Shown: positions 17,711 to 62,519 of the stretch, piece by piece | How the letters are laid out: each line of letters begins with the position of its first letter | Numbering within the stretch: position 1 is the stretch's first letter | From: Camelus dromedarius | Taxonomy: Eukaryota | NCBI RefSeq assembly: GCF_036321535.1 | Contig: NC_087436.1 | Coordinates: 50,036,001 to 50,100,000, forward strand | Length of the DNA: 64,000 nt | Reading direction: 5' to 3' | Program-made: the position numbers and the translations under genes | Notes under the pieces: model-generated | What the model saw: only the letters and a program-made list of their open reading frames with translations | The model's database searches: none | What the model was told of the DNA's origin: nothing

Positions 17711-17739
17711 TTTTTTTTTTCTCTGAAAGGGACAAAGAA

Positions 17740-33084: not shown

Positions 33085-33735
33085 CTCCATTGTCTTCTTA
33101 GTCTGTATTTGATTTCTTTCTGCTCTGATTTTTATATTTGCTTCTTTGTGCTAACTTTCTTCTGCTAATCTTGTTTTCCTTTTTCTGGTTTCTGTTAGTG
33201 TAAATTTAGGTTGTTTATTATATATCTCTGTGGATTTTTTCCTAATGTAGGAGTTTATCACTGTAAGCTTTCCTCTTAGAACTGCTTTTGCTGCATTCAT
33301 AAATTTGGGTATATTGTACTTCCATTTTCATTTGTCTCAAGACACTTTTCTTATTTCTCTTTTGATTTCTTCTTTGGCCCACTGGTTGTTCAGGAGCATG
33401 TTGTTTAATTTCTGCATATTTGTTTTTTTCTAACTTCCTTCTTATAATTGATTTCTAGCTTCTTACTATTGCAGTCAGAAAAGATTCTTGATATGATTTC
33501 AGTCTTCTTAAATGTATTAAGACTTTGTTTAGCAGCCTAATATGTGATCTATCCTGGAAAATGCTCCATATGTTCTTGAGAAGACTATATTCTGCTGCTA
33601 GTGCATGGAATATTCTTTTTTTATTATTTTTATTTTTTATGGAGGTACTGGGGATCGAATCCAGCACCCTGTGCCTGCTAAGCATGTGCTCTACCACTGA
33701 GCTATACACACCATCTTGAAATGTTCTTTAAATGT
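33085..33735 (-). mobile_element. L1 ORF2 (endonuclease-proximal) fragment, antisense, interrupted by a SINE
   Basis: 'tttcctcttagaactgcttttgctgcat', 'cactggttgttcaggagcatgttgtttaatttc', 'cctaatatgtgatctatcctggaaaatg.tccat' are antisense L1 ORF2 motifs. Confidence 0.9.
33616..33712 (-). mobile_element. Camelid tRNA-derived SINE (Vic-1 type)
   Basis: Reverse complement reads 'ggtgtgtatagctcagtggtagagcacatgcttagcaggcacagggtgctggattcgatccccagtacctcc' plus an A-rich tail, with Pol III A and B boxes. Approximate TSD ggaatattct/gaaatgttct. Confidence 0.9.
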
Positions 33736-35160: not shown

Positions 35161-35440
35161 GATCATCTTTTATTGTGGGGAGAGGGTTACAGAGAGCAGT
35201 GTAATCAAGGGTTGTTGTAAGAGGAACACAGGAGAGCCAGACAAGGGAAGACAACATGATAATGGAAGTAGAGATTGGAGTGATGCAGTCACAATGCAAA
35301 AAGTGAAGGTGGCCTCCAGATGACATATTTGTATTATTTTAAAAGTCACTATATTTGTGGTAATTTGGTACAGCAGCAACAGGAAGTAAATATACCACAT
35401 ATCTGGCCCCCTAGAAAGTATTTAGATTATATAAAGAAAT
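35161..35440 (+). repeat. 280-bp local duplicate of 36463-36864 (MLT1 LTR 3' part plus L1 flank) lacking 122 bp
   Basis: Hand alignment gives 19 mismatches in 280 bp, ungapped except for the loss of 36623-36744. Confidence 0.95.
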
Positions 35441-35744: not shown

Positions 35745-36315
35745 TGCACCTCAATGTTCACAGCAGCACTATATACAACAGCCAAGACATGCAGCAACCT
35801 AAATGTCCATGGACTGATGACTGGATAAAGAAGATGTGGTACATATATACAATGGAACACTACTCAGCCATAAAAAAGAGTGAAATAATGCCATTTGCAG
35901 CAACATGGGTGGAACCAGAGATTACCATACTAAGTGAAGTAAGCCAGAAAGAAAAAGACAAATACCGTATGATATCACTTATATGTAGAATCTAAAAAAT
36001 GATAAAATGAACTTATTTACAAAACAGAAACAGACTCACAGACATGGAAAACAATCTTACAGTTACTAGAGGGTAAAGTGAAGGGGAGGGACAAATTAGT
36101 AGGAGTTTGGGATTAGTAGATACAAACTACTATATACAGAATAGATAAGCAATGAGGTCCTATTATATAGCACTGGAAACTATATTCAATATTTTGTAAT
36201 TACCTATAATGAAAAAGAGAATGAAAAAATATACATATGTAAAACTGATTCTTTTTGCTGCACACCAGAAACAAACACAAGACTATAAATCAACTATACT
36301 TCAGTTTAAAAAAAG
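35745..36315 (+). mobile_element. Younger artiodactyl/camelid-type L1 3' end (ORF2 C-terminus, 3' UTR, A-tail)
   Basis: ORF 35789-35995 'QPKCPWTDDWIKKMWYIYTMEHYSAIKKSEIMPFAATW...ILSEVSQKEKDKYRMISLIC' is the L1 ORF2p C-terminus. Ends 'taaatcaactatacttcagtttaaaaaaa'. Confidence 0.95.
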
Positions 36316-36360
36316 AGTATGAAAAGACAAGCTTCAGACTTGAAGAAAATATTTGCACAC

Positions 36361-36818
36361 CGTATGGGGTAGAAATCCTCTACAAGTATATCTGCATCCT
36401 AATCCCAGGACCTGTGACTGTCACCTTATATGACAAAAGGGACTTTGCCGATGTGATGAGGAGATCATCTTGCACTGTGGGGAGAGGGTTACAGAGAGCA
36501 ATGTAATCAAGGATTGTTATAAGAGGGACACAGGAGAGCCCAACAAGGGAAGACAACATGATAATGGAAGTAGAGATTGGAGTGATGCAGTCACAATTCA
36601 AAAAGTGAAGGTGGCCTCCAGAAACTGGAAGAAGCAACAAATAGATTTTCCCCCTGTAGACTCCAGAAGGAACCATCTAGGCTGACATCTTGGATTTAGC
36701 CTTGTAAAAATCATTTTGCACTTCTGACCTTCCACAATGTGAGATGATATATTTGTATTGCTTTAAAAGTCACTATGTTTGTGGTAATTTGGTACAGCAG
36801 CAACAGGAAGCTAATACA
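36361..36818 (+). mobile_element. MLT1 (C/D-type) MaLR solo LTR inserted in an L1
   Basis: 'catcctaatcccaggacctgtgac..tcaccttatatgacaaaagggactttgc.gatgtgat', ending 'tttgtggtaatttggtacagcagcaacaggaagctaataca'. Confidence 0.9.
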
Positions 36819-37725
36819 CCACATACCTGGCCCCCCAGAAAGTATTTAGATTATATAAAGAAATCCCAAAACTTAATAGTAAAAATAAGCCAATTAGGAA
36901 ATGGGCAAAAGTATGAAGAAACATTTCACTGAAGCGGATAAAAATGTCAAATAAGCAAGTGGAAAGATGGTCAACATCATTAATCATCAGGGACACATAA
37001 ATTAATAGCACAATGATCTATCACTATATACTTACCAAAATGGCTTATAAAAAGTTGTAGCACTAAATACTAGCAAGCATGAACAGAAAATTCATACATT
37101 GCTGATAGGAATGTAAAATTTCCACTCTGGAAAAAATTTTGGCAGTTTCTTATAGAAATAAACATTCAGTTACCAAGTGACCCAGCAATTGCACCTTTGG
37201 GCATTTATCCCAGAGGAATAAAAACTTGTGTACACACAAAAACCTGTACACAAATGTTTATAGCAGCATTATTGGTAACAGCCAAAGCTATAATCAGCCT
37301 AGATTTCCTTCAATAGATAAAAGGTTAAATAAGCTTTGGTGCATACATAGCATGGAATATTAACTATCAATAAAAGGAAATTAACTATTGATATATGCTG
37401 CAATTTGGATGCTTCTACAGGAAATGTGATGATGACATTGTTCAGTATCTTGACTGCCTTGGTAGATACACAAACCTAGATGTGATACAATTGCATAGAA
37501 CTACACACACATACACACACACAAGAACAAGTAAACTGGGAAAATCTGAATAAGATCATTGGATTGTACCAATGTCAACACCCTGGTGGTTATACCGTAG
37601 TCATAGTCAAAATGTTAACACTGGGAAACTGAGTAGGTGTTCATGTACATGGAATATCTCTATAATAGTTCTTACAAGGACATGTGAGTCTACAATTATT
37701 TCAGTACAAATTTCAATTAAAAATG
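36819..37725 (+). mobile_element. L1MD/MC-type fragment (end of ORF2 plus 3' UTR); its upstream part is at 36315-36360
   Basis: 'gacccagcaattgcacctttgggcatttatcccagagga.taaaaact', 'gtaaaactgggaaaatctgaataagatc..tggattgtaccaatgtcaa', ending 'tgagtctacaattatttca..acaaatttcaattaaaaa'. Confidence 0.85.
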
Positions 37726-38401
37726 CAACTGTGAAAGTGATAATGAACCCAAATGAACATCTTCAATTCATTCCTCCTTTGGGAACTAGCGTCTATAATG
37801 ATGGTACAGGATTCTAATTCCAACGTTTTGAGAAACATGATTTCTTCTGTGGTTATAATTGTAATTTTTAACTTTTTTGGTTTTTATGTATTTACCTTAT
37901 TGTGAAGGAAGTTTGTTCACCAAGACTTTATTGATAATTATTAGTTTCTTGTTTCCACAGGATAGAAGACAAACATGCTGGTAGAGAACAAATTGGTGTG
38001 GAATTTTTGGGTGATAAAGCCTTAAACTGGGAATCAATCTCATTTTTGTTTTAAATCATTTATTTTGCCCATATTAATCACATATCTTGAGGATAAATCA
38101 CACCTAAGATCATTTTTATATCCTACAGTGCCTGGCATAATGCCATCCTTAACATAGTAAATTGTTAGATACATATTTACTGACTCTATTGCTAATTAAC
38201 TGATCATATAAAGTATATGCCACAAAAATAGAAATGAAAATTTAAATAAGCATTCTTTATAGAACATTTTATAAATAGCTGTCTCAAAGTTCCATTCATA
38301 AATACAAACTCTGTTAGAGTATACATGATATAATAAGACAGAACAGGACAGACATTTTGGAAGCAGTAACACCAATTCAACTATATCAAATAACCTCCTC
38401 T

Positions 38402-38450
38402 CAACACACACACACACACACACATACACACACACACACACACAAATACA
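38402..38450. repeat. (CA)n microsatellite
   Basis: Seen directly. Confidence 0.95.
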
Positions 38451-38803
38451 CAGTTTGAAACTCAAAAGTGAAATAAAATAAGTAATCATGTCCATCTTAC
38501 AATGGGATATGATGTATTTTTAAAACGCCATCTCTTCTTTTTCAGTATAGACTACCATAGTCAGATTCATTTAATTCTCATTAAAATTTTCGGGTATGGC
38601 TTCAAGAAGCATTCCCCAGAGAAACCCCTTCCTAACATGCTGATCTATATATTCGGTGACTAAAATAGAAATAAATGTGTTAATTCAGTGTATAACATTT
38701 GTTTTCTGACTTGAATTTTTTGAATAAATAAAACATCGTGAAAATTAACTTATAGAAATATATTCATCAACTTCCACATTCAAAAAAACCAAAAAAAGAT
38801 GTA

Positions 38804-39704
38804 TGTTGGTTTGTAAATTGGCCCCCATACATGGAGGGCCAGGAGAGACCAAAGAAAGAGGCAGACTATTCCAGATTGGTAGGTGGTGTGAATGAAAAAT
38901 ATTGCCGGCCCTATCTATAAACTGCAGCCACCAACTCATCGGCCACTACCACTGCCTTCAAGGGTGAGTGAAGGAAAGTCAGGATGGAGACAAGCAGGCA
39001 GCCGTGCCTCTGCCACCACCCCCAGTGGTGCCCCATGAGGGAACCCAGGATGGGAAAGCACAGGATACTGGCCCTAGATAGCTAGGTGTGTATCAAAGGA
39101 ATGATTTCAAGGAGCTCAGAATTTTGTACCTTCCCACACATAGAAAAACGCTAAATTATTAACTTGAGATATCTGATTTTCTTTGATTAACAATAATCTT
39201 TGATGTTTCGACTGCCTAGCCTTTGTTGCAAAAACGCTTATATATCCTGGCTCCTTCCCTGCCTTTTTGGAACAGTCTCTCAGAGATATCTGAGAGGCCA
39301 CATCCCGGTCTTAAGTCCTCAGAGATGTCCACCAAATAAAACGTAGCTCAACTTTTAGGCAGTGCATTTTTTCAGTCGACAGTGGTAGGTTTAACAAGCA
39401 AGGGAACTTCCTAATGAGGCTTGTCTTGGACAGTCACAAGATGAGTAGATCTCTGCAACCACCTGCTAGAATCTTAAGTTTGCATAGCAGCCTGGACTGG
39501 GTTCAGTCTCCTATACCGTTCAGATGGCTTCAACTGCACATTGTTCTCTCATGGTTGCATCCTTGAAATGGCTCCAGCTATGGGAACAGTGGGCAGAACA
39601 GACATTCCAAGGACAAGGAAGCGGGGTGAGGAGCCTTCCGTTGCCTGTGTCCAGCTCATGCATCAACCGCAGTGGTCACCTCCTCCTGATGACCTCCTCC
39701 AGCA
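38804..39704 (-). mobile_element. ERV solo LTR (outer element; 5-bp TSD suggests ERVL class), interrupted by a second LTR
   Basis: TG...CA termini ('tgttgg' ... 'ccagca') flanked by atgta/ctgta. The sequence reads continuously across the inner insertion. Orientation inferred from a degenerate poly(A) signal on the minus strand. Confidence 0.65.
38887..39381 (+). mobile_element. ERV1-class solo LTR (495 bp) nested in the outer LTR
   Basis: TG...CA termini ('tgtgaatg' ... 'gtcgaca'), perfect 4-bp TSD GTGG (38883-38886 and 39382-39385), TATA-like 'cttatatatcc' at ~39238, AATAAA at 39335-39340. Confidence 0.88.
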
Positions 39705-40519
39705 CTGTATATTACTGGAGTCCAAGAAACAAGAGAGGAGTAGGTTCTGGACAGTCATTCCAATTTTCTTTTTAAGTTTTATCCTGGTGATGATTTACAT
39801 TGCTCACAAATTCACGATTGTGAACACACCCTTTCCTTTTCTTTGTTTTTCTGCTGGGACTTTCTGTATTGCTCTTGATGTGAACACAAGTCACCTGACA
39901 AAGAAGATGCAGAAGAGAGATGAAAGTAAATATGACCAAATGAAAAAGAACTACCGATGCTAACCTGGAGGAACATATCTTTGCATGCAGATGTAGAGAT
40001 CTCAAGGACTTTCTGCATCTAAAGACAGACTTACTCACTAAGCAAAATTTCTCCTCTTTTACATTGTTTGCCTGCAGGCAGCAAGATCAGGGGGAAAATG
40101 CCATAAAAGGACTATAGAATTACTTAGGGAATTTATTTTCAAATCCATGGGATGATTGTTAGTGAAATTATAATTTCACAAGATAAAAAATTTAGAAGCA
40201 GGGAAATCAATTTTACAATAGGTGTTATATTTATTTCCTTTCAGTCTCGAAGGCCATTTTATATTGACCCTGAAAACATGTAGTCTATGTAAAAAACATG
40301 CAAGAATATCAATTATTTCAACTTGGTTTCATAACTGAAAGCTAAAGGAATTAAAGTGTAGTGAATGCTTCTCCTTGGAAATGCTGAGTAATTGTTGTAA
40401 TAAAGACTGTTATAAAGAAAAATGAAAATGATATAGGGTTGTTCAAATAATATTATGAAGAAAGTTAATTACTAACTATGGCAAAAATACATTAAATGAT
40501 TATTGAACAATAATCTATT

Positions 40520-40770
40520 GCAGCATAGTAATTCAGAGTGTATCTTCTAGGGTCAGGCTGGATTCAAATCCTAACTCACCACTTATTACTGTGTGACCCT
40601 GTATAAGTGTACTGCCATTCTGTGTCTCAACTTATTTCTTATAAGATTGGGATAATTTAGTGCCTAACTCATTGGGTTGTTATGGGGATCATGTAAGACA
40701 ATCTACATTAAAAAGAAAACTTAAAGTAGTGTCTGACACAAAGTAGACCCTGTAAGAGATAGTTGTTATG
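40520..40770 (+). mobile_element. Near full-length MIR
   Basis: 'ggattcaaatcctaactcaccacttattactgtgtgaccctg...tgtgtctcaact...gggataat..agtgcctaactcattgggttgttatggggat...gtgtctgacacaaagtag'. Confidence 0.8.
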
Positions 40771-41329
40771 AGGCACCATTGTTTGCTAACAGAGTAACGC
40801 AACAGAAAAAAATAAAAAGCAAAAGTTTTAAGACGATGCACAAAATACCGGAGAGGCAGGCATATAAATAGCCCTGCCAAAAATAAAGAAATAAGTTCTG
40901 GGAAATGATCTGGAAGGAACTAATTACAGTGGGAATATTAAGGAAGATTACAGAGAACATAATTTGACCTGAGACTTGAAATTTGAATAAAATTTCAATT
41001 GTTCGTGGAAGGAGTGGAGGAGAGGAATGACAAAAACATTTTCAAGACAGAACAGGACAAAATATATAGGGACATCTCAGTAAATGGCCCTCCTGGGGAA
41101 AAATTAGTATTGTGGTGAATGGAGTTTAAGAGTTGTGAACTAATAAGGTAGAAGTTGAAGCTGAAATGTGAGATTGAGAAGAACTTGCTCTGGATACTCT
41201 ATTGTGGACTTTGTTAGTTGTGCTAAAAAATGTACATCCATTGTTCACCAAAGATTGCAGTCCCATTCTGTGTTACAGATATACTTGAGAATGATTGATT
41301 TATGGAAGGTGTTGCCAAGGCAAGGACTC

Positions 41330-41576
41330 TGTATTTTTGCCCAATTTACATCTAAGTGGAACCACACATCTAAATCTTACCAATAGAATTTGAGTGGAAG
41401 TGATGTGTGTCACTTCCCACCCAGCATGGTAAACAACAGATGTGGTTCCTCCACAATCTCTTCCCAGTTCTTAGCCTGGAAGAAAAGAACTCTTAAGTCC
41501 TAGCAGATGGATGATGATAGAAGAAGTTTATATTCCTACTGGCCACTGAAAACTGTGTGAGTGTGTGTGTGTGTGT

Positions 41577-41615
<39 letters not shown>

Positions 41616-41640
41616 TGTAATAACCAGTGTTATCTTACCT
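41330..41640. mobile_element. Old MLT1 (I/J-type) LTR remnant containing a (TG)n microsatellite at ~41553-41618
   Basis: 'ccaatagaatttgagtggaagtgatgtgtgtcacttcc' is a hallmark of old MLT1 LTRs; the TG run is seen directly. Confidence 0.65.
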
Positions 41641-41644
41641 AAAA

Positions 41645-42050
41645 CATGGAGATCATTACTTTAAGCAAAGTAAGCTAGAAAGAGAAAGAAAAATACCATA
41701 TAATATCACTTATATGTGAAATCAAAAAAAAGAGACACAAATGAACTTACTCACAAAACAGTAAGTCATAGAAAACAAACTTATGGTTACTGGGGGGAAG
41801 AGGGGTGGGGAGGGATAAATTGGGGGTTTGGGATTTGCAGATACTAACTACCATATATAAAATAGATAAACAACAAGTTTATACTGTATAGCTCAGGGAA
41901 CTACATTCAATATCTTGTAGTAACCTATAATGACAAAGAATATGAAAAGGAATATATGTATGTATATGTATGACTGAAGCATTACGCTGTACACCAGAAA
42001 TTGACACACTGTAAACTCTCTATACTTCAATTTAAAAAGGACAAAAAAAA
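41645..42050 (+). mobile_element. Camelid-type L1 3' UTR with A-tail
   Basis: 'agaaaacaaacttatggttac', 'gggataaattgggggtttgggatttgcagatactaacta', 'gctgtacaccagaaattgacaca.tgtaaact..ctatacttcaattt' plus an A-rich tail. Confidence 0.9.
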
Positions 42051-43009
42051 GAATTTGTCTTTATTCTTATAGTCCACCTAATTTTCTAGAAGAACTCAAA
42101 CTGTCATAGAAATAAGGTGGTTCTGGTATTAGTGAAAAACTGTAGAGCCAATAAGCTAAAACTAGCTGATTGGGAGCTCACTCGGGAATCTATTCCACTA
42201 ATTCTGACAGCGGTGAGAAGTGTACCGTTAGGGAGGTGGCACAGGAATGAAAGGAGGGAATAGACACCAAGGCAGTCACTGGAGACAGGGCTGGTCATGC
42301 TAGACCTCGGTGACTGAACCTGGGGAACACGTGAGTAGGAGAGGAAGAAACACTGGAGATTCCATGTCTCTGTGACCAGTCAACAGAAGTCACAAGTAGC
42401 AAATTTTGGCATAATTTATGATGTTGGCTGATTATAATCATTATTAAAAAGCGATGGGTTTTCTCAAGAGGGAATGAGATCTCTCCCACTCAAATATATG
42501 CAAATCTAATAATATAATTAATTAATAATAATATAATAACAAATAATATAATAATAAGTGACTACTTACTAAGGATTTATAAAGGGGCTTTCCATGAGGA
42601 GTGGATTCTTGTAAAAATATAGCTTCTTAAATTTCTTACAATTCAAAGATTTGATAATTTAGCAATGATTCTGGCTGTGCTCAAAATAACGTATTTCAAT
42701 AATTTGTAAGAAAAAATTAAGGCAACTGAAAAACCAGAAATGTACAGAGTACAAATACATTTCATGTATCATTTTTTAAATAAAGATTTTGTTTTAGGTC
42801 AGAATGATGCAGAAATTACAAGGGCATTTCAAATAGCATTGAATAGTATTGACATAATCTACTTAATAGAACTTTCTTATGATGACAAACAATTTTAAAT
42901 CTTAGTTGTAGCAATACACTTTTTTTCTGAAATAATTACTAAAAGTATGCTTTGTGATTTCTCTCCAGTGTACAGGTAACATTTTAGAATATAAGCTAGC
43001 ACTTACCTT

Positions 43010-43885
43010 TTCTCTTTTCAAGCCCCTCCTCATTCTTCACAGGGTCTTGGATTTATCCACCTGTGATATTTCATCCGCGGCAGAACCGCATTGTCTCCAC
43101 AGTAAATGGTCAGGAACCACAGAGGTCCGGACGTTATTGTTTCTGCGAGTGCGTATTCTGTGTCCACTGCTGATTTGCATAGCATCTGCTGTCACTTTGC
43201 ACTTTCTCTATAGTTTTTTGGGGTTTTTTTTGCATTCTTGACAGCTGCTTCAGTAGCACTTTGCCATTGGATTGGCTGTGATGAGGAGAAGATGTGACAT
43301 GTTCAGATTCTGATGACACAGCGAACCGCAAATTACCCATTGGCAAAATGAAGTCTATTGCTGGCAAATAGTCTCAGGAATTCCGTAATAGGCAATCTGG
43401 GCACTGCAGTACCCCAGTGCAGCAGATCAGATGCTGCTGTGTATAACAGCTCCATTTTCTAGTAGTCAGAGTGGTAATCAGCCATAGCAAGGTATTCATG
43501 ACTGCCCACCGCAAACAAACACATCCTTTCCTTACTCAAGGCCACTCTGGTGATTCCATGAGCATAGCAGGATAATGTTGGTTATTGGCTTGAGGTATTG
43601 CCTTTGTCTTTATAAATTCCACAGGTATAATTCTCTGAAGCTTAATTAATTGGTTATCATGGAGTTCCTCCAGTGTTGGCTGGAAAATCACTTTTGAGCT
43701 AATAAGAGTATCAATTTTAATGAAACAAGCTATATTTTAAATTATGTAATTGCACAATTAAGGTGTAACCGAACTGCAACTCGCTTCAAAGACTGGAGAG
43801 TCTTCACAGCAATCAAGATGGGATGTGAGGAATCAGTTCCTCTCATACTCTCGTTGGAAAGCTTTAGAGTCTTGATGGAAATAAA
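43010..43885 (-). mobile_element. Degenerate Ty3/Gypsy LTR-retrotransposon pol fossil (pre-integrase region plus integrase core)
   Basis: Minus-strand translation across frameshifts gives, in order: 'LKLSNES...KTLQSLKRVA', 'NYTCGIYKD', 'PEWP', 'SKERMCLFAVGSHEYLAMADYHSDY*KMELL', 'AQIAYYGIPETI', 'ASNRLHFANG*F', 'FAVSSESEHVTSSPHHSQSNGK', 'EAAVKNAKK'. These are colinear with Gypsy rve motifs (PW.KVG.DLF...YL..VDYYS.Y.E; FAR.GIP..I.SDNGPQF; H.TSSP..PQSNG.AE.AVK.AK). Confidence 0.85.
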
Positions 43886-44110: not shown

Positions 44111-44330
44111 TTTTATTCATTTATTTATTTATGTTTATTGACATATAGTCAGTTTACAATGTTGTGTCAATTTCTGATGCATAATGTGTCAGTCATACGC
44201 ATACATATTCCTTTTCTTATTCTTTTTCACCATAAGTTACTACAAGATATTGACTATAGTTGCCTGTGCTATACAGTATAAACCTATTGTTTATCTATTT
44301 TATATATAGTAGTTACTATCTGCAAATCTC
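44111..44330 (-). mobile_element. 5'-truncated camelid-type L1 3' end with TSD
   Basis: (ttta)n tail, then 'atagtcagtttacaatgttgtgtcaatttctg...ttactacaagatattga.tatagtt.cctgtgctatacagt'. Flanks cagaggaaacac/cagagaaaacgt form an imperfect TSD. Confidence 0.88.
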
Positions 44331-45527
44331 AGAGAAAACGTTTTTAAATAAACATATGAAACCCCAGTTACAGGTTTCTTCTATGCTAAGGCCTCCTCTG
44401 AAATTAATGAATTAGAATAATATCAGTAAAATCTAAAAGGGTGAGATTCACAAAATTAACAGAATTTTTATGTTGACACAACAGAGTTTAAAATTTAAAG
44501 GACCAGGTTGATTCAGTGGCTTTAATGCATGGTCGTTGTAAGGGGCGACATGGAATATTATCCTCTCAATATATGTAAATAACATGAGCTACATTTTTCT
44601 ACCATACGTAGCTAATTTAACAGATTCCGTTAATGTGAAAATTGATTAAGTTTATATTGACCTATGTTAAAAATCAGTATTCAGTTTTAAAGTATATAGA
44701 ATGATTTACTCCCTTTTTAGAAGCCCTGGCACCCAAAATACCAATTATTTCAGCAACTTAAATTTTGACCACAATCATGTAAATGTTTATTAAAATCAAC
44801 AAAATAAACTTGCAAAGGCAAACTCTTTCATTGTTATGACTATGTGTGCAAACAAAATTAGGCATTTGGGTTGTGGGGTGCTTACCAGTAAACTGATCAG
44901 ACAAAAACAAGCATATCATTGAGACGAAATGAGTTTAAAAGGATAATCATTAGAACCAATTTTTAAAATGTAAGATCCAAATAAAGTGAATATGTTTGGA
45001 GGAAAGAGCAAAGTGCATTTCTCTTTGGCAAAACACATAGCCTCTAGTCCAAAGATTAAAAAAATATCAGGACAACGATTTTGCTTTCTTTGCATTCTTT
45101 TACTTTTTTTACTTATTTATTAGATTTTTAGTTGTGTTTGGGGTAGTGAATTTAGTAAATAAATGACTCAATTAAGATGATGTATTAGGTCAATGATAAT
45201 TACTTCAGAAACACCAGGTGGGTATTGATGAATCCATCTCAGATAAAAAGCATTTCAGTTAACTCTTAGAAGCACTCAGGACTGAACCCAAGAAGCATAA
45301 AAAACGGGGAAGAAGAGAAAGGAAGGAGATGGTCCCTGGTGTTTGTAGCCAGTGTGCATGGTTACAGGATTCTAGTGGGTCAGGGAAAATGGTGCACTAG
45401 AGAAAACCTGGAGATAATGGAAGGTTATACAATTTGGTTTCAAGGTAGATTAATAGGATAAAAGCTTTAATTATTAATTGACTTTAGTCAGATATCTATT
45501 TTTACTTACAAATTTATGCTGTTTTCA

Positions 45528-45620
45528 GGGGGTGATAATAGTCTAGTGGTAGAGCACATGCTTACGACGCATGAGGTCCTGGGTTAAATCTCTAGTACCT
45601 CAATTAATAAAAAAAAAAAA
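45528..45620 (+). mobile_element. Camelid tRNA-derived SINE (Vic-1 type, short form)
   Basis: 'ggggtgataatagtctagtggtagagcacatgcttacgacgcatgaggtcctgggttaaatctctagtacctc' plus poly(A). Confidence 0.85.
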
Positions 45621-45645
45621 TTTTTTTTAATGGAGAAAGATTATC

Positions 45646-45803
45646 GGAGGAGGATATAGCTCAGTGGTAGAGTGTGTGCTTAGCATGCACAAGGTGCTGA
45701 GTTCAATCCCCAGTACCACCATCAAAAAATAAATAAATACATACATAAACCTAATTACCTTCCCCTTCTCCACAAAACAAAAACAAAAACAAACAAAAAC
45801 CCC
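45646..45803 (+). mobile_element. Camelid tRNA-derived SINE (Vic-1 type, longer-tailed form)
   Basis: 'ggaggaggatatagctcagtggtagagtgtgtgcttagcatgcacaaggtgctgagttcaatccccagtacc' followed by 'aataaa..cctaattacc' and a (CAAAA)n tail. Confidence 0.9.
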
Positions 45804-46494
45804 AGAATTTTATGCTGCTTTTAGTTTTACTGGACTTGAGAAATTGGATCAGAGAAATTTCCTGCTTTGGTGAAACATGAGAATCTAAATATAAAGAACT
45901 GATGAATCATAACATGTAGAAGCAATATAAAATATTTATTCAGATTTTATATAATTATAGGGATCTGGAAACCAATTGAATCATTATTCTTAAAACTGGT
46001 ATAATTTATTCTTAAAAACGTATGTTAGAAGTGTGGTCATGTATGAGACTGTATCTTCCAGGCTCAGTGAGGGTGCAGCTGGTTAACTGTTTTAGATTAA
46101 ATAAAACAAAATGAAAGTGAACAAGAGCACAAAGTCAGAAGTATGAGGATCTTTTAGTCTGCTTTAAAAAACACAAACCAGCCGCCACTTTTGGCATTCA
46201 AAATTTGAAAGTGCTTTGTGACTCCCTACCTCTACCTCTCTATCTCTGAAAAACAAAAGGTCCTTTGAAAATGGAAGCAATGTTTCTAAATGTGCTAAAA
46301 TATTTCAGAAATAAGTTGTAAAATGAGGGAAGATATGAACATGCTTCTTCAAATTACAGCACCCCAAATTTCAGCTGAGAAAAGTTGAAGATGCTTAAAT
46401 AGAATGTTGCCTTGAATTTCAGATTCACACTAAGCTGTATAGCTCTGTATTTTAATTGTGAATTCAACTGCATTTAAAATTATGACATTAGAAA

Positions 46495-46715
46495 ACATAA
46501 AGACATAGGTTCAAAATTCTTTCTACAACGTATTACCTGTGCGAGTGTGAATGAGTAAATTAGACTTTTAAATCACAGCTTTCGCAATGCTAAAGTAGGA
46601 AAAATTATAGAACTTACATTGTACGGCTATTGAGTAAATTAACTCATAATGTATACAAAATATCTAGCACAGTGCTGATATCTAAATATATTCAAAAACC
46701 ATAGGCTATTATTAT
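46495..46715 (+). mobile_element. MIR, degenerate
   Basis: 'agacataggttcaaaattct...attacctgtgcgagt...aaaatatctagcacagtgctg...ggctattattat' follows the MIR order. Confidence 0.55.
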
Positions 46716-48039
46716 GAATAGTTTCTAAAGTGAATTAATTCTATATTTAGATTAGAGTAAAAAGTGCGACTGTATTATATTGCTTTCTTATGTTGCACTT
46801 CCAGGCAAATAAAAATAGATTTTTTTCATATTTTGTTTATATAACTAACATTAACAACTAAATTCAATCCTTAGCATTTCAATCTTAAAATTCAACTGTA
46901 TTTCTGAAATTATAACACTTTAAATCTCCTGAAATCACTTTAACACTGAACCTACCATCTGATCGACTAACCATTCCACTGTAATAAACAAATCCCTAAT
47001 AAGATTTGCTTAATCGATAAAAGCATTCAATAGGACAGAGCTAATGAAGGAAGTTGTGACTTGTCACCAAAGGGCTCACCTTGGATTGTCATGACTCCAT
47101 TAATTTCTCCTTTTTGCAAAGATTTTTAAAAACTTGTTATGAATTCAGGTAACTGCACTATTACTTAGTATTTCTATACCTTTAATATAAGTAAAGATAA
47201 TTAGATATTTTGCCTTATAAATTGCTGAAACCATTCTTCACATTCCACTCACCGTGTATCCCTGCGAAACAGGAAGGCAGTTACTTCTGCGTGGCTTGTT
47301 CTCAGTGAACCCTTATCAGTTCCTAGGGTTGATGCTTCTGTTCTGTCATATATATTTTTACACTCATGTGTTTAACAGATCTTTATTGAATAACTGCTAT
47401 GTTTTATGTATTTTAATACATGATATGATGGGGAAACTTTAATGGACAAGTAAAACATAGCTTCTGGAGTTGTGAATCCAGCAGGGATTACGGGAAAGAA
47501 GACAATTATAATACAATGTAATAAATTCAATTATGGATCAAATTTATAATGACATATAACTCAGACTGTGTGAGAAAAGGAGGATGAGTTAGTGAATATT
47601 TTCTAAAAACGTAAAAATTGAATATTTAAGCCAAAACCTGAAGGATAGATAAAATAGAGCCTCACTGAGGAAGAAGAGTGTTTAGCCTAAAGGAAATAAC
47701 GGAAGAAAATATGGACTGTAATCAGAATGAGTTGGTTTGCTGTGGCTGGAGTGAAGGGAGTGTACAGGTGGGGAAGGAAGAGGCTGGAATTGTGAACCGG
47801 CCAACGCATAAAGCTCTATGAGGCTAACGTACCTCTTCTGCTACAGCTGTTGCAAGCAACTTTCCTTGCCCGACCTTTGAGTACTAGAGCAAGATGTGCA
47901 CATTTCCATCTGCATATTCTCAAATTCCCATTTATTTTAGTTTTTATTAAGGATTGATTTGTGGTAACAGTCACAAGTTCAGTACATTGGTATTTAATCC
48001 ATTAATTTATTCTATCATTCATTTATTCATTATATATAA

Positions 48040-48413
48040 TATATATGACTGAATTGTGTCCCCCAGATTCATATGTTGAAGCTTTAATCCCCAGTACCTC
48101 AAAAAAGGCAATTAAGTTAAAAGGAGGCCCTTAGGCTGGAACTTAATCCAGTCTGACTGGTGTCTTCCTAGTAAGAGGACCTTACACCACACAGAGACAC
48201 CAGGGATGTGCACGCACAGGGAAGAGCCTTCATGAGGACACGGGAGAACGCGGCCATTTGCAAACCAAGGAGAGAGGTTTCAGAAGAAACCAAGCTGTCA
48301 GTAATTCGATCTTGGGGATTTCTAACCTCCAATACTGTGAGAAAATAATATCCTGTTGCTTAAGCCACTCAGTCTACGGTATTTTTTTATGGCAGGTCTA
48401 GGAAACTAATATA
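48040..48413 (+). mobile_element. MLT1B-type MaLR solo LTR
   Basis: 'actgaattgtgtcccccagattcatatgttgaagc.ttaatccccagtacctca...taatccagtctgactggtgtc...cacagagacaccagggatgtgcacgcacag...taagccactcagtctacggtatttt..atggcag.tctaggaaactaata'. Confidence 0.9.
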
Positions 48414-49865
48414 ATGTGTATGTGTACATTTATAATATATTGAACTATGTTCTGTTCCCTGCACTGTAGTATTGGTTAAGAATATGAAGAAAAGAAACAT
48501 TATTTCTTAAAATTTTGGAATTTCAGATTTGAGGGAGAACTGAATTAATAAAACATAAATTACAAAAAGGGTTTATACACGAATATGGGATTATACGTGC
48601 TATAAAAGAACTGCCAGGGAATTAGCTCCACATAATACACGACATTTCTTGGAGATGGAGATGCTTGGGCAAAATTTTGAAGGGAAAACTGTGTTCAGCA
48701 AAATGAAAGGACTGGTAGGAAGATGGCCTTGGCTTCCTGGCCAGACCCAGACATGTAAGGGTGCACAGCAGATTTTATGACTTGCAGTATGTAGTGCTGT
48801 CGGCACCGGTGTATGTGTGTAAGGGAGCAGCAGTCAGACGCTCCTTCAGTGATCCAGAAGAAGTGAACTCTAATTACCTTTTGTCCTATGAGGGGCTTCA
48901 TTTCCATGATGCCACTTCTTATCACTTTCAGTATGTTGATTTTTTTTTCCCTTCCTGAAAGAAAGGAAACAAGTTGCAATTAATGAATCTTGTCCATATC
49001 TGTTATCAGTTTACTTTATATGACCTCTCCCATGGAGTGATTCTCGCACTTCTTAGTCATTTTTAATTCTAAAGGAATATTTTAAAATATGGCCATGCAT
49101 TTGCAGGCTTCAGTCTGTTGCCTGACCACCAGTACATGTTGAGGCTCTTCCTCTCAGCTTTTAACTTATTTTAATCTACTTTAAGTTAATGATTAATACC
49201 TACACCAGCTGTTATCTGCTGTCAGTACACACAGTAGCACAAAAACACTTACCCGCACTTAGTTCTAACACTGTGGGATATTTACTTAGCTTTCTTCCCT
49301 TCCCCCGCATTTGTTTGTCTTTTGGATGAGTTCCTTTATGCTAGGTGTTAGCTTTTTCACCTTGGGTCAATTGTTCTTATACTATAGTGTGTCTCAAAAT
49401 CACCTTGAAGTTATTGGTAAAAATACAGATTCTCCCTGAATGTTTTAATTCAAAAGCTTTGAAGGAGTAGCACATGAAGTGGGAAATCTTGCCTTACTAA
49501 CTGATATGCAGGGCGTTTATTAACAGAACTCAACAGTGGGTACACTTATAGCCTCTAATGTGAACACTGTAGCACCGTGTTTTTGCCCTGTGTCCTTGAG
49601 TCCACCTCTCATGATCACAGAATAAATAGCAGGGTTTCACTTGCAGACTGATGCCATGCAGAATATCTAATAGGAAGCTCTTGAATTCGTGCCTTTGTAA
49701 ACCACGTACACGCAAACACTTAACTTCTCCTTGTTTACAGACCCTGTATACTACAATTCATGCTTTTGCGGTCAGGACAACTTTTGGTGGCAAATGTTGA
49801 AATAGCAAATCAGTTTCCTTCATTAGGCTTAGTTTTAAATCTATTGAAGAGTTAAGTGTCCTCTA

Positions 49866-50142
49866 ATAGTCAAGGTTCTCCCTAGCAATAAACCAATAGG
49901 AGATACACATGGAGGAAGTGTTATAATAAGGAATTGGATCACATCAAAATGAGGCTGGCATGTCCAGACTTGCAGAATCAATATCCCAGTTCAAGTCTGA
50001 AGGCTGGCAGGCTGTTGTAGAACCAGGAAGAGCTGATGTCTCAGCTTCAAGGCTGTTAGGCAGGAGAATTCTCTTTTATTTGGGGGAGGATCAGCCTTTT
50101 GTTCTATTCAGCCCCTCAACTGATGGGATGAGGCCACCCACC
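49866..50142 (-). mobile_element. MLT2 (ERVL) LTR fragment
   Basis: 'tagtcaaggttctcc...aaccaataggaga...taaggaattgg.tcaca...gccttttgttctattcag.ccctcaactgat.ggatgaggcc' is antisense MLT2. Confidence 0.85.
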
Positions 50143-50164
50143 TGGCTACCTTGCCTGCTTCTCT

Positions 50165-50350
50165 TCTAGCATCCTTAGCTGCTTCCTTCTTCTATCTTTC
50201 CCTTGATTCCTTCTGTCTTTTCTTCTTTCTACCCTCACTTGCTCACCTCCATTTCTATCATCTCTGACTTTATGACTTTCTTCTCTCTTCCCCTCTTCTT
50301 TTTTCTTTCTTCCTTCTTTCCTACATAGCCTCTTTCTTTTCCTCTTTATC
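50165..50350. repeat. Polypyrimidine (CT-rich) low-complexity tract
   Basis: About 180 bp almost devoid of G, seen directly. Confidence 0.75.
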
Positions 50351-51467
50351 CAGTTTACACAAAAAGGGGGAAATGATCTACTTTTGGCAAGTTAATTACT
50401 AATACCTTTTTAAAGAAAAAAAATTCATCACTTACATACAAAGTTGGCATTTCAGTTAGGAGTCATACAAATTTATACTATTATCTTCACATTTCTCACA
50501 GATTATAAATTAGACTGGTTCTTCCCTTGGATGTGATTTGACTGTAAAACCTCAAGTGTTCCAGCAGGGGCTGGGGTTGGGGGTGGGAACAGCTTCTTGC
50601 CAAAGTGTCACCCCCTTGTGAATTCTGGGATAAAGCTGTCACATGAAGACTCTTCCCTTCCTTGAGTGATCTGCTGGGTCAGGTTCCCTCATCAAATGTG
50701 TCAGTGTGAGTCGGTCTTTACTACTCTTATCAGCTTAAATTCCAGCCCTCTCATCACCATTTAACATTTCTCTGGCATGATTTAAATGGATTTTGACGGT
50801 ATTCCAATATCAGAGAGCATATTCTGCCAGTATAAAACATGTTCAGTAGCTACAATCACAAAACATCTAAATTTATCCAATTTAATTTCTTGGATGCTTT
50901 TTCCCCTCACCCCACATGCCAAACTAAGTCATTTTTCCTGCCTAGTGGTACACACAGGCCCCAAAGTACCCAATCTGAAAATGTTAAGATTGATTTAATG
51001 CTTTCAACTTTCTTTGCGTTACTCTTGTAACTCTGCATCCTCAAATATTCCAGGTAATATTTTACCAGAATTTGAATGCTGGGTATACTACAAAAGATTT
51101 CTTAAATGTTAGGGCTCACGTATTTAACTGTCTTCCAACCACCCAATCTTACAGATGAAGAAATGTGATGCACAGAAGATAAGAGATTTGCCCCAAATCA
51201 TACTTCTAGAGAGTGGCCAAACTGGTTCCAGGCCGGGCTCTATTAGTCAACATTAGTACACATTTGGGCCAGTCCAGATATTGTTCTAAGTGTTTTGGGG
51301 TAGGGACATTGACTACGCATTGGATAATATCCAAGCTTGTAGATTACTTGCCAGTTCAAAAAGAAAGCATCTCTTTTATAAATGCATATTCTTGGTACTG
51401 AAAAATCCCTTTGACATCTCTGCACATCTTACAATCAATTATTAGATAAATACTATTTCTTGGGGTG

Positions 51468-51543
51468 TCCGAGTTGAACTCTATGAAATCACTGAACTAT
51501 TTTTTGACTTAAAAATTATAAGTTAATATTGTTTTATCTAATA
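51468..51543. mobile_element. MADE2-like mariner MITE (~80 bp)
   Basis: 'gttgaactctatgaaat...ctattttttgact.aaaa...atattgttttatctaata' follows the recalled MADE2 palindrome. Confidence 0.5.
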
Positions 51544-54500
51544 CTTTGATGACATATTTAACAGCCTCCAGAAATAAAATTATGCCAAAATCTGTCCTTT
51601 CATTTCATAAGTGTTAAAATGAAAGTGGGTGGGAGTGGGTGGAGGAAAATAGGAATTTTGACCAATTGGAACAGAAAATATAATCCAAAGGGAAACATAA
51701 CTTATGTAAATCTTTCAAAAGGGCCATTGCAACCAACGGAGAATAGACAAGAATTAAAATCTAAATATTACAGATACTTGACAATATCTCTTTAACAGCT
51801 TCAGATTGATTCCTTTTTGCCTGAGCATACTGGCTCACTCACTCCTCCATCATATATCTGTAGCTTGACTGACTCCCAATTCTTGCTGATGCAGTGTGTG
51901 GGAACCAGCTCCATTATCTTTAGTTTCCAGGATTATAAGATATCTAATAAACTTAGCAACCAGCATGCCAAGTACATGCAATGCAGCCAGCTGGTGAAGT
52001 CTTGTTGCGTATTAAAGAGAAACTTTGCTTTCATTTTGAAAGGAGTCTTTCGAATCTTTTCTTTCATATGTAATGTCTCAGTTGTGGATGCATTAATCTA
52101 AAACTTCATCTTAACTGTGGTTTTCTGCCTGCTGCCACAAAGAGGGAACACAAGTCGTTATAGAGCAAGTAGCATGCTACTAACAAGAAAAAATATGAAA
52201 TCTGTTATGAGATGACCATTTCAAATTTATAAACTTTGAGGAATTATCTACACAATTAGGAAGTGAGTGTCTGACAGAGAATGTGAAGGGTGTTTGAGAT
52301 GCAGAACCAAATGCACAGTATGTTCTCAGATCTATCTCAGTATTTCCAATGCTCTATTTTTGAAATGGGTGCATAAATGTTCAAAGTTATCATTTGTGAA
52401 TGTACAGTTTACATCACTGCTAATTAACTCATTGTTTCCTTAGTTACCAATTGGTATCCTGATTTATTCCGAATTTTTTTGAGATGGCTCTAATTAGCTT
52501 GGTGCTGAGATAGGAGACCAAAAAGGAATAAAATAATTTGCTAACAGGACTGTAACAATCAGAATCCATAAACTGAGAAACATGAGGAGATATTTTAAAA
52601 GCTGTGACCATATGAATTAAATATAAGATATTCAGAATCATACTTCTGTGAGAGAGAAAATGAAGAATAGATTCATACATGAGAAAGCATAGTCCAACTT
52701 CTCCATTCAATCTTTGGGAACAATGAGGGAAGGACCATTTTTTTAAAGTTCGAAAATGAGTTTGTGATAGTCAGGGTTGGAATGCATGTTGCCTGATTTT
52801 CAATCCAGTATTCTACCGTGCAATAGAGACGTAAAGTGATCAAGGCAAAATTCCTTCTGACTTACTGAAAGCACAGGAGAAACAAGTGCTGTTTGTCTTC
52901 ACAGAAAAAGATTAAGGTTTGGAGAACTGACTTTTACAAATGAGAAATTAGAATATTCTCTTGGTGTCCTAGCATTCTCCCCATTGAAGGTGCCCAAGAG
53001 AGAATACAACTATAAAAGTCGTAGTAAGTGTCAGTGTGTAAATGATAGACATGATGCTAGGACATATGGGCTAAAGAAATGAGGGCAATATCCTTTTCTG
53101 TCATGTGTCTGACAGTTTGAAGAGAGAAATTGCAAAGAACGTATGATAGTTCTCTGTAGCAGCTGGAAGTTACATGGACACACAAACATCTTCTTGCTCA
53201 TTCATATCATAAAAAATATGATTTTTAAGGAAGTAAGTGTTTAGGATGTCTGTGTTTATATCATGACTGTGAGAAGTTGGCTTAATAACCAAACATTTTT
53301 CTCAACCATGACAGGCATGATTTTTACTGGGTAAGATGACTGTCTAAAATGGATTTTCCTTAAAATTAAAAAAAAAATGAAAACAGATCATTGCAAATCT
53401 AGGAACAGTATTTACATTTAATTTGGAAAGGAGATTGATGGCAAGGAGTAAACCAGGTGTGCAACTCTCAAGAAAAAAAAAAAAACAATGAGGGGAAACT
53501 TATGATTATTTTTGAAAAGAATTGAAGAGACAGTCCTGAAAGTTGGAAAATTGGATATATGTACTATGTGGAAGTGACAGTGAGAATGAGTTGAGCTGAA
53601 GCCGTCCAAATTAAAGCCCCTAAAGGAAGAAAAGACAGACTGGAAAAAGATGGAGCATTATTATTGAAGAGAAAGTGAGTATTTATATGAGTGGACACAT
53701 GACTTTAGGGATTTGAAATGCAACAGATGGCATGGATCTGAGAGCTAATTTTCAGAAGATATTTAAGTATGTTTAAGGTTCATTGAGTGTATGATCTAGT
53801 AAGAAGGAAACCCTGATTCAAATTGACCAGAATCCTGAGAAACCTGCCAGATTGACTTTCCATATAATGATGCCACAGAGAACTGAATGTGTCTGGTAGA
53901 TTCAATGAATACACATGTGTCCTGTCACAGAGCACAGAGGACCCCTTATCTCTAAAGGATAAAATTTGGGGTAGGAGAGTTAATGTTTTTCCAAGAAGTA
54001 AATTAGTGGTGTTTCCTAATGTATACCTTCAAATGTGCGACAGAATTAATAGAACAAAAGTGGTGATTAACTTCTAGGAAATTCATCTTTTTTTACATAT
54101 GTTAACTTTGGCTGATTTGTTTCTAGACCTTTATGAAATACAAAAAGAAAGATTTCATATGAAGAAGTATTAAATATAGATTTTAGCAATTAGTATTAGA
54201 GTTTGCCAGTAGGAACTTTGTTTTCCCCCTCAAGCCTAAAGCCTCTTTGGAAGAAATTTTTGTGTTTTAAAGAATTATTTAAATCCATGGAAATAGGTAG
54301 GAAAGACATGCACAGTTTAGAGATTCCCAGATGAGAACTTCTCTCCAGTATTTTTTATATATTGCTTTTGCATCTTAAACCAGACCTCACAGATCCTAAA
54401 GATTATACCAGCTGAACGCTATCCAGCTATCAGTCCATGATCTTTAGATGAAGTGCACCGTACAAGACATACGGTCCTTTCTTCACAAGAAGCTGTAATT

Positions 54501-56889
54501 TGTCTGTTTTCACGTGGATACCTGTGCACCAGTAAATCTTCACACTTTCAGCCCTATTCCCAGTCCATTCATGACATGATTTGCACTTTTTTCCTACCAG
54601 TATTTCTCAAGAAATGGATTAAGCAATTGCTCCAGTCTATCAAGCTCTGAAGTCATTTGATTCTGAGATTAGTTTCACATTTCCCCTGACTGTTAACAAT
54701 TTTACAGTATGGCCAGAATGCCTGCTGAAATTCCTACTGTCACATTTGAGATGTAGAGAAGCCACAAAGACTTAAAACATTAAGAAGAGAATAAAGTCTG
54801 TATTATTCATAAGAAGATAGGGAGGTACCTGAAACATTAACAGAATAAGTTACATTATCTATTTAGTTGGAAATGATTCTTCCAAGTTTTGTCCTTGTGG
54901 AATTTTTTCTAGTTTGATTAGGGTTATTCTGGATTTTGTAGGTATTATGACTTGGAGCACTTTCCAACAGGAACCTTGTAACCATGAGCTACTTATTTTT
55001 TCAGAATTATACTAGTTTTTTCTTTTTTTTTTCCCATCTCCTTAACCATTGCTATGCACCACAGTTGTTGATTCTCTTTTTTCCCCTTTTTTATCGATAT
55101 GGTGACAGAATCACTATGCAATTTTGTAGAGCTTTATGATTCTAGCCACAAACTTTGGGAAAGAAAGCTTTTTACTATGAGTGGTAACATTTCTAGCGAT
55201 TTTATTTATGTTTATCTTTTATTTTAATAGTCATTTGGTCATTCTTGAAAGAAACGTATCCCCTTTAACATCTGTTTCATTGTCTTGGGTTTTAGGAGTA
55301 TTTTCAGGGGTTTTAGAATGAATATTTTCAGGGTAATTTTCATCTGGTAGCATTTGGAAAATTTTTACATCCAAAGCAAAAAAATTCTAAATTGATCTTG
55401 ACCACATTGTGTTAGACAGCTAACCTCAGTCTTGCTACCTGGATATTATCTCTAAATAATTAAAGCACAAGGCTTGTATTGTTCGTTTGTTTTTTAATAT
55501 ATAAAGAATAGATTATAAAAGCTTTGATAGCTAAAATTACTCATACTCCTGGACTGGTACGACCCAAAGTGTGCTCTTATCTGGGATAGTAGTTACCTGT
55601 GGGGGAAAAAAGCTGCAGGAAGGCAGCAGACGAGGAATTCAGTGGAGCAAGGAGGCTGAGAAATGCAATGCAAAACTGATGACTTCTCAGTGTCTAGAAA
55701 GTGCTAAAATTTATTCTGGTCATCTCAAGGGGTTTATGACATGACATATACTCCCAAACAAAATCACAGTATCATCCTCTTTAACAGAAACTTCCATTAT
55801 ACTAATATTCACAGGAATATATTTTGGAAAACACAGTTTTAGACAATTTCCTTACTTAGGATAGAAATCATCTCTGGCCTTCCAGGTTTTCTCACTAGTA
55901 TTTATTTTTTTTAACATGAAAAGGGTATTTCTCTTTCTAATCCATCTAAAGCCGTCTGTAGGCAAAATTATGAATATACTTGCTTCTTCCTTGGACTGCC
56001 ATCTTTTCATTCCTGCCCATTCTGTACTCTCCCCTCCAGGCTTCTTCCTAAGTAAGCTGAGCCTGTGACACCACCTTGTCCTCTGGGCTTCCTCGCGTCA
56101 CAGTCCCCGGCCTCTGTCTACACCTGCTGAACATGTCAGCATTCCTTGCTTCAGAGCACAACTCTATGCTAACAAGTTTGTAGATCTGAAGAAGTTTATA
56201 GAGACTCACAGATCTTTCTTTCTTCTGTGTCATTTATGGCCATCAGAAGACAAGGGCACAGTCATTTTCTTGCTAGACTCAAGGCAGTGTTTCTAGGTGG
56301 AAGTTTAAGTTAGGTGCTATGCCAGCATGACAGCTAAAATAGGACGTCTGAGACATCAGTCACAGTTTTAGTCTAGCTAGTAAGTATGTGTATTCGTCTC
56401 TGTGCAGATCGATGCATCTCTTTAAATCTTTTTTTTCTGGATCTATTTTATTCAAAAAATACATATTGAATACTTATTGTGTGTTATTCTTGAGATAGGT
56501 GTTGTGGGTGGAATGACTATGAAATTCACTATGACATCTTGAATTAATAAATTCCTAAGAAAAGGGATGTACCTTGGTAGAAAAATGAGAGGATGGTTTG
56601 GGGCCAAGTATGATCTAATGCATTCATTTCAAAAATTATTTTGGGGGGGAAGGAGTTAAACTAGATCTTGGGAATTACTTACCATCTAGGGTTACAGTTT
56701 ACCTAATAGATTAAAACACAAGCTTAGGAAATTAGTTAAATAGCATTTTAAAAAGTACTTGGAAGGTATCTGATGCTTCTAGAGAAGCATTGTAATAGTT
56801 TTTAAGAGAAGAACCAGAACTTCATTGAATTTTCACATATTTTATTGTTCACTCCAGTGTTGTCTCATTTTAAATTACTGATGTAATTG

Positions 56890-57076
56890 TATTGTGTATT
56901 TGTTCTGGAGGCTAGAAATCTGAAATCACAGTGCTGGCAGGACTGTGTCCTCTCTGAGGTTAGAGGGAAGACTCTGTTCCATGCCTCTCTCTTAGCTTCA
57001 GGTGATTTCTGACAATACGTGGAGTCCCTTGGCTTCAGCTTTACTCCTCCAATTTCTGCCTCATCTTCATGGCCTC

Positions 57077-57116
<40 letters not shown>

Positions 57117-57300
57117 ATGTCCAAATTTCCCTCTTCTTTTTACAACATAAAGTTGTATTGGATCTAAGGCCCATCCTTCTCTAGTGACCTCATTTTAGCT
57201 TGATTACATTTGTAAAGACTCTGTTTCTAAATTAGGTCATATTCACAAGTTTCAAGTGGACATGCATTTGAAGCGAAAGGCATTGTCCAACCTAGAACAG
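56890..57300 (-). mobile_element. MLT1 (C/E-type) MaLR LTR containing a (TG)n microsatellite at ~57078-57114
   Basis: 'gttctggaggctagaaatctgaaatca..gtgctggcagg...gacctcattttagcttgattacatttgtaaagactctgtttctaaattaggtcatattcaca' is antisense MLT1. Confidence 0.88.
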
Positions 57301-59199: not shown

Positions 59200-59282
59200 G
59201 AAGTAAAGAAGGAAGGAAGGGACGAATGAACAAACAAAGGAAGGAAGGAAGGAGGAAGGAGTGAAAGAGGAAGGAAGGTTGA
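59200..59282. repeat. (GGAA)n-like purine-rich simple repeat; short (GT)n nearby at ~59063-59086
   Basis: Seen directly. Confidence 0.8.
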
Positions 59283-62515: not shown

Positions 62516-62519
62516 TACA

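Follow-up and report, generated by a model that had tools for sequence, protein, structure and literature searches.

Two Ty3/Gypsy-derived pieces on the minus strand

The window, that is, the whole 64-kb stretch of DNA that was analyzed, carries two degraded retroelement pieces on its minus strand (Table 1). One is a non-coding fossil of an rve-type DDE integrase of Ty3/Gypsy (Metaviridae) origin, as the first-pass annotation of this DNA had proposed; the other, a gag piece located 8.3 kb from it, was absent from that annotation. The locus is an object of an already known type, an old Gypsy protein fossil, and the new part is a modest point on its clade.

Table 1. Coordinates of the two pieces and of associated features in the window.
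Feature	Position	Strand	Basis or remark
Possible continuation into the integrase C-terminal region	42974..43119	(-)	Borderline
Splice-donor-like site just 3' of the integrase piece	43001..43009	(-)	Motif scan
Integrase catalytic-core fossil, Ty3/Gypsy (probably SURL/Mag-like)	43120..43592	(-)	Profile and pairwise alignments
"Pre-integrase segment" and TCGIY of the first-pass annotation	43593..43885	(-)	Not above chance
Intervening DNA; expected site of zinc knuckles, protease, RT and RNase H	44400..51750	.	Younger repeats
Possible nucleocapsid zinc-knuckle remnant, C-x2-C-x10-C	47856..47921	(-)	Expected order, not significant
Donor-like and acceptor-like sites bracketing the gag piece	51842 (donor-like), 52132 (acceptor-like)		Motif scan
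Gag fossil, capsid C-terminal region	51853..52077	(-)	75 codons, 1 stop, no frame break

A search with one stop-free 48-residue part of the integrase piece returned 12 proteins among 16 candidates, namely ten near-identical open reading frames (ORFs), one short integrase fragment and one intact polyprotein of 1,396 residues (P0013) with RT, RNase H, H2C2 and rve domains. The integrase region of P0013 was used to collect 1,198 relatives, and the best 120 of these were analyzed; this set was seeded from that one match, and none of Mag/Jule, Barthez, sushi and Gmr1 is represented in it as an outgroup. Of the named relatives among the best 120 listed, some were "K02A2.6-like" proteins, from sea urchins, lancelets and a pseudoscorpion; the others were Gypsy proteins, from Xenopus tropicalis, another frog, oyster and fishes. 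This agrees with the earlier preference for a K02A2.6-like or Mag-type element over the sushi-related lineages. The intact relatives showed the domain order RT-RNase H-H2C2-rve and carried PF00665, and the closest solved structure to one of them, P0041, was Ty3 Gag-Pol (E 1.6 × 10−72). Four very long or chimeric models (P0038, P0045, P0071 and P0072) were left out of the profiles and trees, and the trees were built from 76 sequences of at least 1,250 residues each.

A profile of 116 intact relatives was scanned against both strands of the whole window with a frameshift-aware protein-to-DNA aligner written for this analysis, together with 42 controls (2 reversed strands and 40 local dinucleotide shuffles). 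The integrase core (43,592–43,195, minus strand) scored 165.4 half-bits versus a control maximum of 56.9, corresponding to a Gumbel P value of about 2 × 10−16. In pairwise alignments to the same stretch, 118 of the best 120 relatives out of 1,198 scored 71–157, and the two misses were the long gene models P0045 and P0071 (scores 37 and 39). The rve/Gypsy search proposed by the first-pass annotation gave a divided result: the Pfam scan of three single frames of the region, with stops read as X, returned no family in any of the three frames at E ≤ 10 because frame breaks cut the piece, whereas both the frameshift-aware profile and tblastn with the intact polyprotein P0013, which gave one match in the window (E 3 × 10−6), were positive. 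Chance motifs, an assembly artefact or contamination, for which the empty Pfam scan might speak, can practically be discounted and are refuted for the integrase core by its P value. All 142 sampled words were recovered in 14 of the 24 listed runs, from two organisms (13 rows being marked as possible sources of this DNA), orthologues come from other hosts, and mammalian SINEs and L1 ends lie nearby.

The integrase fossil was identical to P0039 and to P0041 at 54 of 146 positions each (37%) and to Xenopus P0033 at 56 of 156, and these best pairwise alignments extended to about 43,120. Each of them required five frame breaks (at about 43,563, 43,420, 43,365, 43,328 and 43,258) and three stops. 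Other residues occupy both catalytic Asp positions, and the Glu survives in a different frame. In all 76 full-length relatives D, D, E, H, H, C and C show no variation; the piece thus has the loss of both Asp that was called earlier, and with its breaks, its stops and an undetectable HHCC region it lacks the intact frame, D, D, E and HHCC of an active integrase.

The motifs quoted in the first-pass annotation were all located on the minus strand between 43,626 and 43,225; their order was as quoted, and they were distributed among the three frames: TCGIY at 43,626–43,612, the first-Asp region at 43,521–43,462, YGIPETI at 43,387–43,367, the piece after it at 43,365–43,342, a histidine-serine block at 43,301–43,260 and EAAVKNAKK at 43,251–43,225. 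The reading of the 5' part did not hold up. For the local alignment of the supposed pre-integrase segment (43,885–43,600), 42 and 70 of 300 shuffles scored as high or higher, and the anchored extension through the proposed TCGIY zinc finger and its upstream segment was reached by 110–275 of 400 shuffles under six settings. On the other side, the alignment score of the 3' tail (43,177–42,995) was reached by 9 and 17 of 300 shuffles. The same profile also gave a weak first-Asp-region match at 24,299–24,127 on the minus strand, whose 52–55 half-bits fell inside the null range.

The gag piece scored 69.9 half-bits with the unselected 116-relative profile (P about 5 × 10−4 per 64-kb strand). A sub-clade profile, picked after the scores had been seen, gave it 77.2, whereas 47 shuffles reached at most 62.1. 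Its best pairwise scores were 97, 94 and 92 to P0069, P0041 and P0147, respectively. It aligned to residues 109–183 of P0041, a part that overlaps a weak Pfam Retrotrans_gag assignment and therefore identifies the piece as capsid; we label its pattern as that of the major homology region, which is our assumption. Pfam on the gag piece itself gave an irrelevant 13-bit match only, and a word-based homolog search with its stop-free part confirmed none of three candidates. The signal for the gag N-terminus and for the region 3' of gag was not above shuffles.

Relationship of the two pieces and the DNA between them

The gag and integrase pieces probably derive from one element rather than from two. 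Both are on one strand, with gag ahead of integrase, and no other signal in 128 kb (both strands) rises above noise. P0041 and Xenopus P0147, which are sisters in the pol tree, rank 2–3 of 76 for the gag piece and 1–2 for the integrase piece, and the rankings of the relatives by the two pieces are correlated (Spearman 0.36, P value 0.001, with no correction for kinship). The alternative of two separate insertions by related elements, one of which left the gag and the other the integrase, would account for the 8.3 kb between the pieces, as against 2.6 kb between the matched stretches in intact elements, with no linking fragment found. It would also account for the tree placements. Exhaustive maximum-likelihood placement on the 150 branches of a fixed backbone was flat, and the two pieces preferred different branches (best weights 0.20 and 0.21). 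Nor was a contig found on which another host carries the two side by side. In addition, the gag piece has 1 break in 75 codons and the integrase piece 8 in about 150, but this difference in break rate is not significant (Poisson P value 0.09–0.14). Given the shared strand, the right order, the same top relatives and the sparseness of such fossils, a double insertion is improbable.

No remnants of protease, RT, connection, RNase H, linker or H2C2 were detected between the pieces when profile segments were compared with shuffles (0 of 8 segments above the shuffle maximum, two settings). A zinc-knuckle-like word in the gap scored 45.6 versus a null maximum of 42.8 in 60 shuffles, as one of 11 segments tried, but on a second test 14 and 20 of 200 shuffles scored as high. 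The surrounding stretch (47,819–47,921, minus strand) shows a Cys spacing like that of the first knuckle in the intact relatives, followed by a second knuckle-like word in another frame. A same-strand repeat that could represent an LTR pair was not found between 52,100–60,000 and 36,000–43,000. Two of 15 intact loci inspected, the metagenomic relatives L009 and L028, share a 13-base primer-site-like word 212–241 bases upstream of their gag match; in the window this word had three matches with at most two mismatches (1.9 expected by chance), none of them near gag. The missing LTRs and primer site are the expected loss in an old fossil, and the locus is a remnant, not a complete element.

Younger repeats occupy the gap. 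Stretches resembling MIR, L2, MLT and MER5 were seen by eye between 44,400 and 51,750, and we presume that they are such repeats. Three related copies, 76–87% alike, lie at 35,918–36,279, 41,649–42,008 and 44,195–44,331; they look like L1 3' ends, which we take them to be, and the third sits between the two Gypsy pieces. ARAGORN and Rfam on 44,500–64,000 returned one tRNA-like SINE only, called tRNA-Ala. Three short tRNA-Ala-like SINE copies, 73–86% alike, were noted at 45,545–45,745 (+) and 33,629–33,706 (-). Vic-1 SINEs are of tRNA-Ala origin, and the copies presumably belong to a camelid vic-1-type SINE, which makes a camelid host plausible. Vic-1 is entered in SINEBase as a simple SINE of camels (PMC3531059).

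Fragments of a single element pushed apart by younger insertions have been described by Frith (2022; PMC9004415), whose catalogue, built on a protein-fossil detection method described by Yao and Frith (2021), comprises, for human, 83 Gypsy protein fossils of pre-amniote age, of which RepeatMasker had recognized 3, and 4 older ones matched to proteins of oyster, salmon, Xenopus and turtle. With these numbers, the rarity of Gypsy fossils was overstated in the first-pass annotation. Like those fossils, the pieces described here are non-coding, frameshifted and found by DNA-to-protein alignment only, they match Gypsy proteins from frogs and aquatic animals best, and they form a pair that drifted apart; unlike them, they are 8.3 kb rather than 30–3,000 kb apart.

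Clade affinity and known mammalian Gypsy remnants

Because the relative set was seeded from one match and holds no outgroup clades, the clade call rests on a motif count by eye over 20 positions around the catalytic Glu. Reptile exemplars were taken from supplement file 3 of Kokosar and Kordis (2013; PMC3670739), the Alligator SURL being AKHW01056905. The fossil matched Xenopus P0147 at 18 positions, Alligator SURL at 15, Anolis SURL at 10, Chrysemys Mag/Jule at 9, Alligator Mag at 8, new Mag at 6 and Alligator Barthez at 4; the motif is short, and Anolis SURL is barely above Chrysemys Mag/Jule. P0147 and P0041 further share with the SURL exemplars, by eye, a CPA(Y/F)G double knuckle and an LR(I/V)C(I/L)DP RT motif, both of which are missing from the Mag/Jule exemplars. 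These comparisons suggest that the fossil probably belongs to the SURL branch (C-clade) of Mag, as a lead rather than as a tree test. With the SURL elements (Alligator, Anolis, Xenopus P0147 and P0033, and P0041) it has in common the Glu-region signature, the capsid segment and the gag-before-integrase order, and the amino-acid identity to Xenopus P0033, P0039 and P0041 is 36–37% over about 150 positions; unlike them it is dead and fragmentary, with no RT, RNase H, primer site or LTR found.

Kokosar and Kordis (2013) placed the SURL/Mag C-clade in the mammalian stem germline from reptile data, and SURL, Mag and new Mag are scored as absent in the three mammalian columns of their Table S2, not even as remains (PMC3670739). 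If the clade call holds, the locus would be direct evidence for such elements in that germline, and a datable orthologous insertion would bound the extinction time of the lineage. It would alter a table entry rather than a concept, since dozens of unannotated old Gypsy fossils are known in human. Nowhere in the literature covered was a mammalian remnant of SURL or Mag reported by name. The accessible text of Frith (2022) names no clade ("Mag" occurs 0 times), in contrast to the SURL-like call made here, and the accessible part of Wang and Han (2021) makes no mention of Mag. A camel survey (among PMC4131045, PMC8605555, PMC4350176 and PMC5486457) predicted 15–56 "Gypsy" elements per genome, with no clade given in its accessible part.

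The fossil could also be a copy of a curated mammalian Gypsy family (X1_LR to X4_LR or MamGypsy2-I) or one of the human fossils listed by Frith, and the chance of this falls somewhat short of even. MamGyp-int/MamGypLTR, X1_LR–X4_LR and MamGypsy2-I, the last of which we take to be a Dfam mammalian Gypsy family, are likewise ancient mammalian Gypsy remnants with similar decay. X1_LR–X4_LR appear in Table 4 of Kojima (2018; PMC5753468) as Gypsy internal portions without LTRs in human, and the 87 old Gypsy fossils in Tables 4 and 5 of Frith (2022) have best matches, oyster, salmon and Xenopus proteins among them, from the host range of the relatives found here (PMC9004415). Against a curated family, only 3 of the 83 Frith fossils were known to RepeatMasker, and all ten close clusters of ORFs proved orthologous, with no paralogous copy found in what was a weak search. 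MamGyp-int in particular gave rise to PNMA2 (PMC9934673), and PNMA is of Barthez descent (PMC3670739), so that identity with MamGyp-int is unlikely, Barthez being the worst fit in the motif count (4/20). A PNMA-type capsid was not seen either: in the relatives, Pfam PNMA (PF14893) was below cut-off in 4 of 6 proteins (13–22 bits versus 25) and absent in 2, and it was not found on the gag piece.

Orthologous loci, present role and other features of the window

The near-identical ORFs amount to 19 sequences in 10 clusters, all of them gene calls in non-coding frames that read the same wrong frames as the window. Four of the five integrase breaks are shared by 4/4, 17/17, 19/19 and 18/19 of the ORFs that span them, indicating that the ORFs represent the same locus in other hosts and that it was dead before these hosts split. 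Of the 17 ORFs that span the fifth break, near 43,420, 16 lack it; it is therefore specific to the lineage of the window. Seventeen of the 19 ORFs are 73–83% identical to the window, which in a simulation corresponds to about 8–12% DNA divergence, and the other two are 55% and 59% identical; among themselves they are mostly 81–100% identical, with lower values for P0010 and P0011. For the gag piece, a full HMMER search gave two matches. P0144 is the orthologue, with 80 of 131 residues identical including non-gag flanks (61%, about 20% DNA divergence) and six frame changes relative to the window, while P0143 was dropped as a gag relative because it is repetitive and tblastn did not match it to the window. 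A search for orthologous DNA in JGI metagenomes gave 39 pattern matches, of which none was confirmed. P0002–P0022 and P0144 are spurious proteins in public collections, in at least 11 clusters, that stem from this dead locus.

The shared breaks point to one orthologous insertion that decayed before the hosts of the ORFs split. If the host is a camelid, the sole age bound would be that the insertion is older than the camelid lineage. Elements of this kind encode gag and pol in one frame, assemble a capsid, are reverse-transcribed from a tRNA primer and integrate by a DDE integrase. In the history we propose, a Ty3/Gypsy LTR retrotransposon of the SURL/C-clade of Mag would have entered, by a single minus-strand insertion, the germline of an ancestor that camelids share with other mammals, and would then have died. 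Deletion or decay would have removed the LTRs, the primer site and the central part of pol, younger repeats would have widened the distance between the pieces from 2.6 to 8.3 kb, and only the capsid piece and the integrase core would still be recognizable. We regard this overall reading, a single dead SURL-branch Mag insertion in two fragments at a locus common to other mammals, as likely. The gag-integrase pair would then serve as a small marker of local genome expansion.

The fossil makes no protein: all orthologous ORFs covering the breaks have shared and lineage-specific breaks, and no open frame is conserved. It could nevertheless have been exapted, with one or both pieces under selection as non-coding DNA, such as an enhancer or exons of a minus-strand ncRNA; the history proposed above would hold in that case too. 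Very old protein fossils are strongly conserved in Frith (2022; PMC9004415), and the orthologous ORFs are 82–94% identical to the window in the core, a value inflated by ascertainment because the core was the search query. The gag piece is flanked by one donor-like and one acceptor-like site, and another donor-like site lies just 3' of the integrase piece, but the window has 15 equally good donor motifs (GGTRAGT, 8 on the minus and 7 on the plus strand). A divergence of 8–12% is moreover the neutral level should the hosts belong to the slowly evolving artiodactyls, for example whales, and breaks specific to the window or to single hosts still accumulate. Exaptation is rather unlikely, and a passive relic, rather than a constrained element, is moderately favored for the present state. 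RNA-labelled runs contained 54%, 41%, 17%, 7%, 6% and 6% of the sampled words, which is no evidence of expression. The narrower proposal, that a SURL/Mag C-clade insertion at this one mammalian locus had its pieces reused in minus-strand ncRNA exons or regulatory DNA, appears distinctly improbable; if it were true, a lineage that has no known domesticated descendant and that mammals were scored as lacking would survive there unannotated.

A pseudogene of a domesticated gene (GIN1/2, KRBA2, SCAND3, PNMA or RTL), or of a lost gag-and-integrase gene, is very unlikely. The gag piece is nearly open in the window and lies between the splice-like sites, as such a gene might leave it, but P0144 differs from the window by six changes of frame, and the homolog searches found no intact mammalian protein. 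The relatives match Pfam PNMA below cut-off only, and the gag of P0041 gave no match to capsid structures at E ≤ 10 in a comparison run with no positive control. The known sources of domesticated genes are Chromovirus, Barthez, Gmr1, Osvaldo, Cigr2 and ERV, and Table 1 of PMC3670739 has no domesticated gene derived from Mag. In human, Henriques (2024) found no intact metaviral capsid genes beyond the 24 already known, plus two related pseudogenes. The domesticated metaviral genes (PEG10/RTL, PNMA, ARC, GIN1/2, KRBA2 and SCAND3) resemble the fossil in their metaviral origin and single orthologous locus; unlike them, the fossil has no open frame and no catalytic triad, and it comes from another source clade.

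Several further features of the window were recorded. A local duplication (35,161–35,440 and 36,463–36,864) consists of 160 and 123 bases at 93–94% identity, flanks one of the L1-like ends and has about 120 extra bases in its second copy. The region 8,100–9,000 is GC-richer, with overlapping frames of 108–118 codons on both strands, and no Pfam family was above cut-off there in six frames. An AT-rich degenerate tandem array with periods of 13–81 lies at 17,550–17,714. At 59,839–60,693, the two arms of a 47-base inverted repeat, 85% complementary and 761 bases apart, are possibly the termini of a small DNA transposon.
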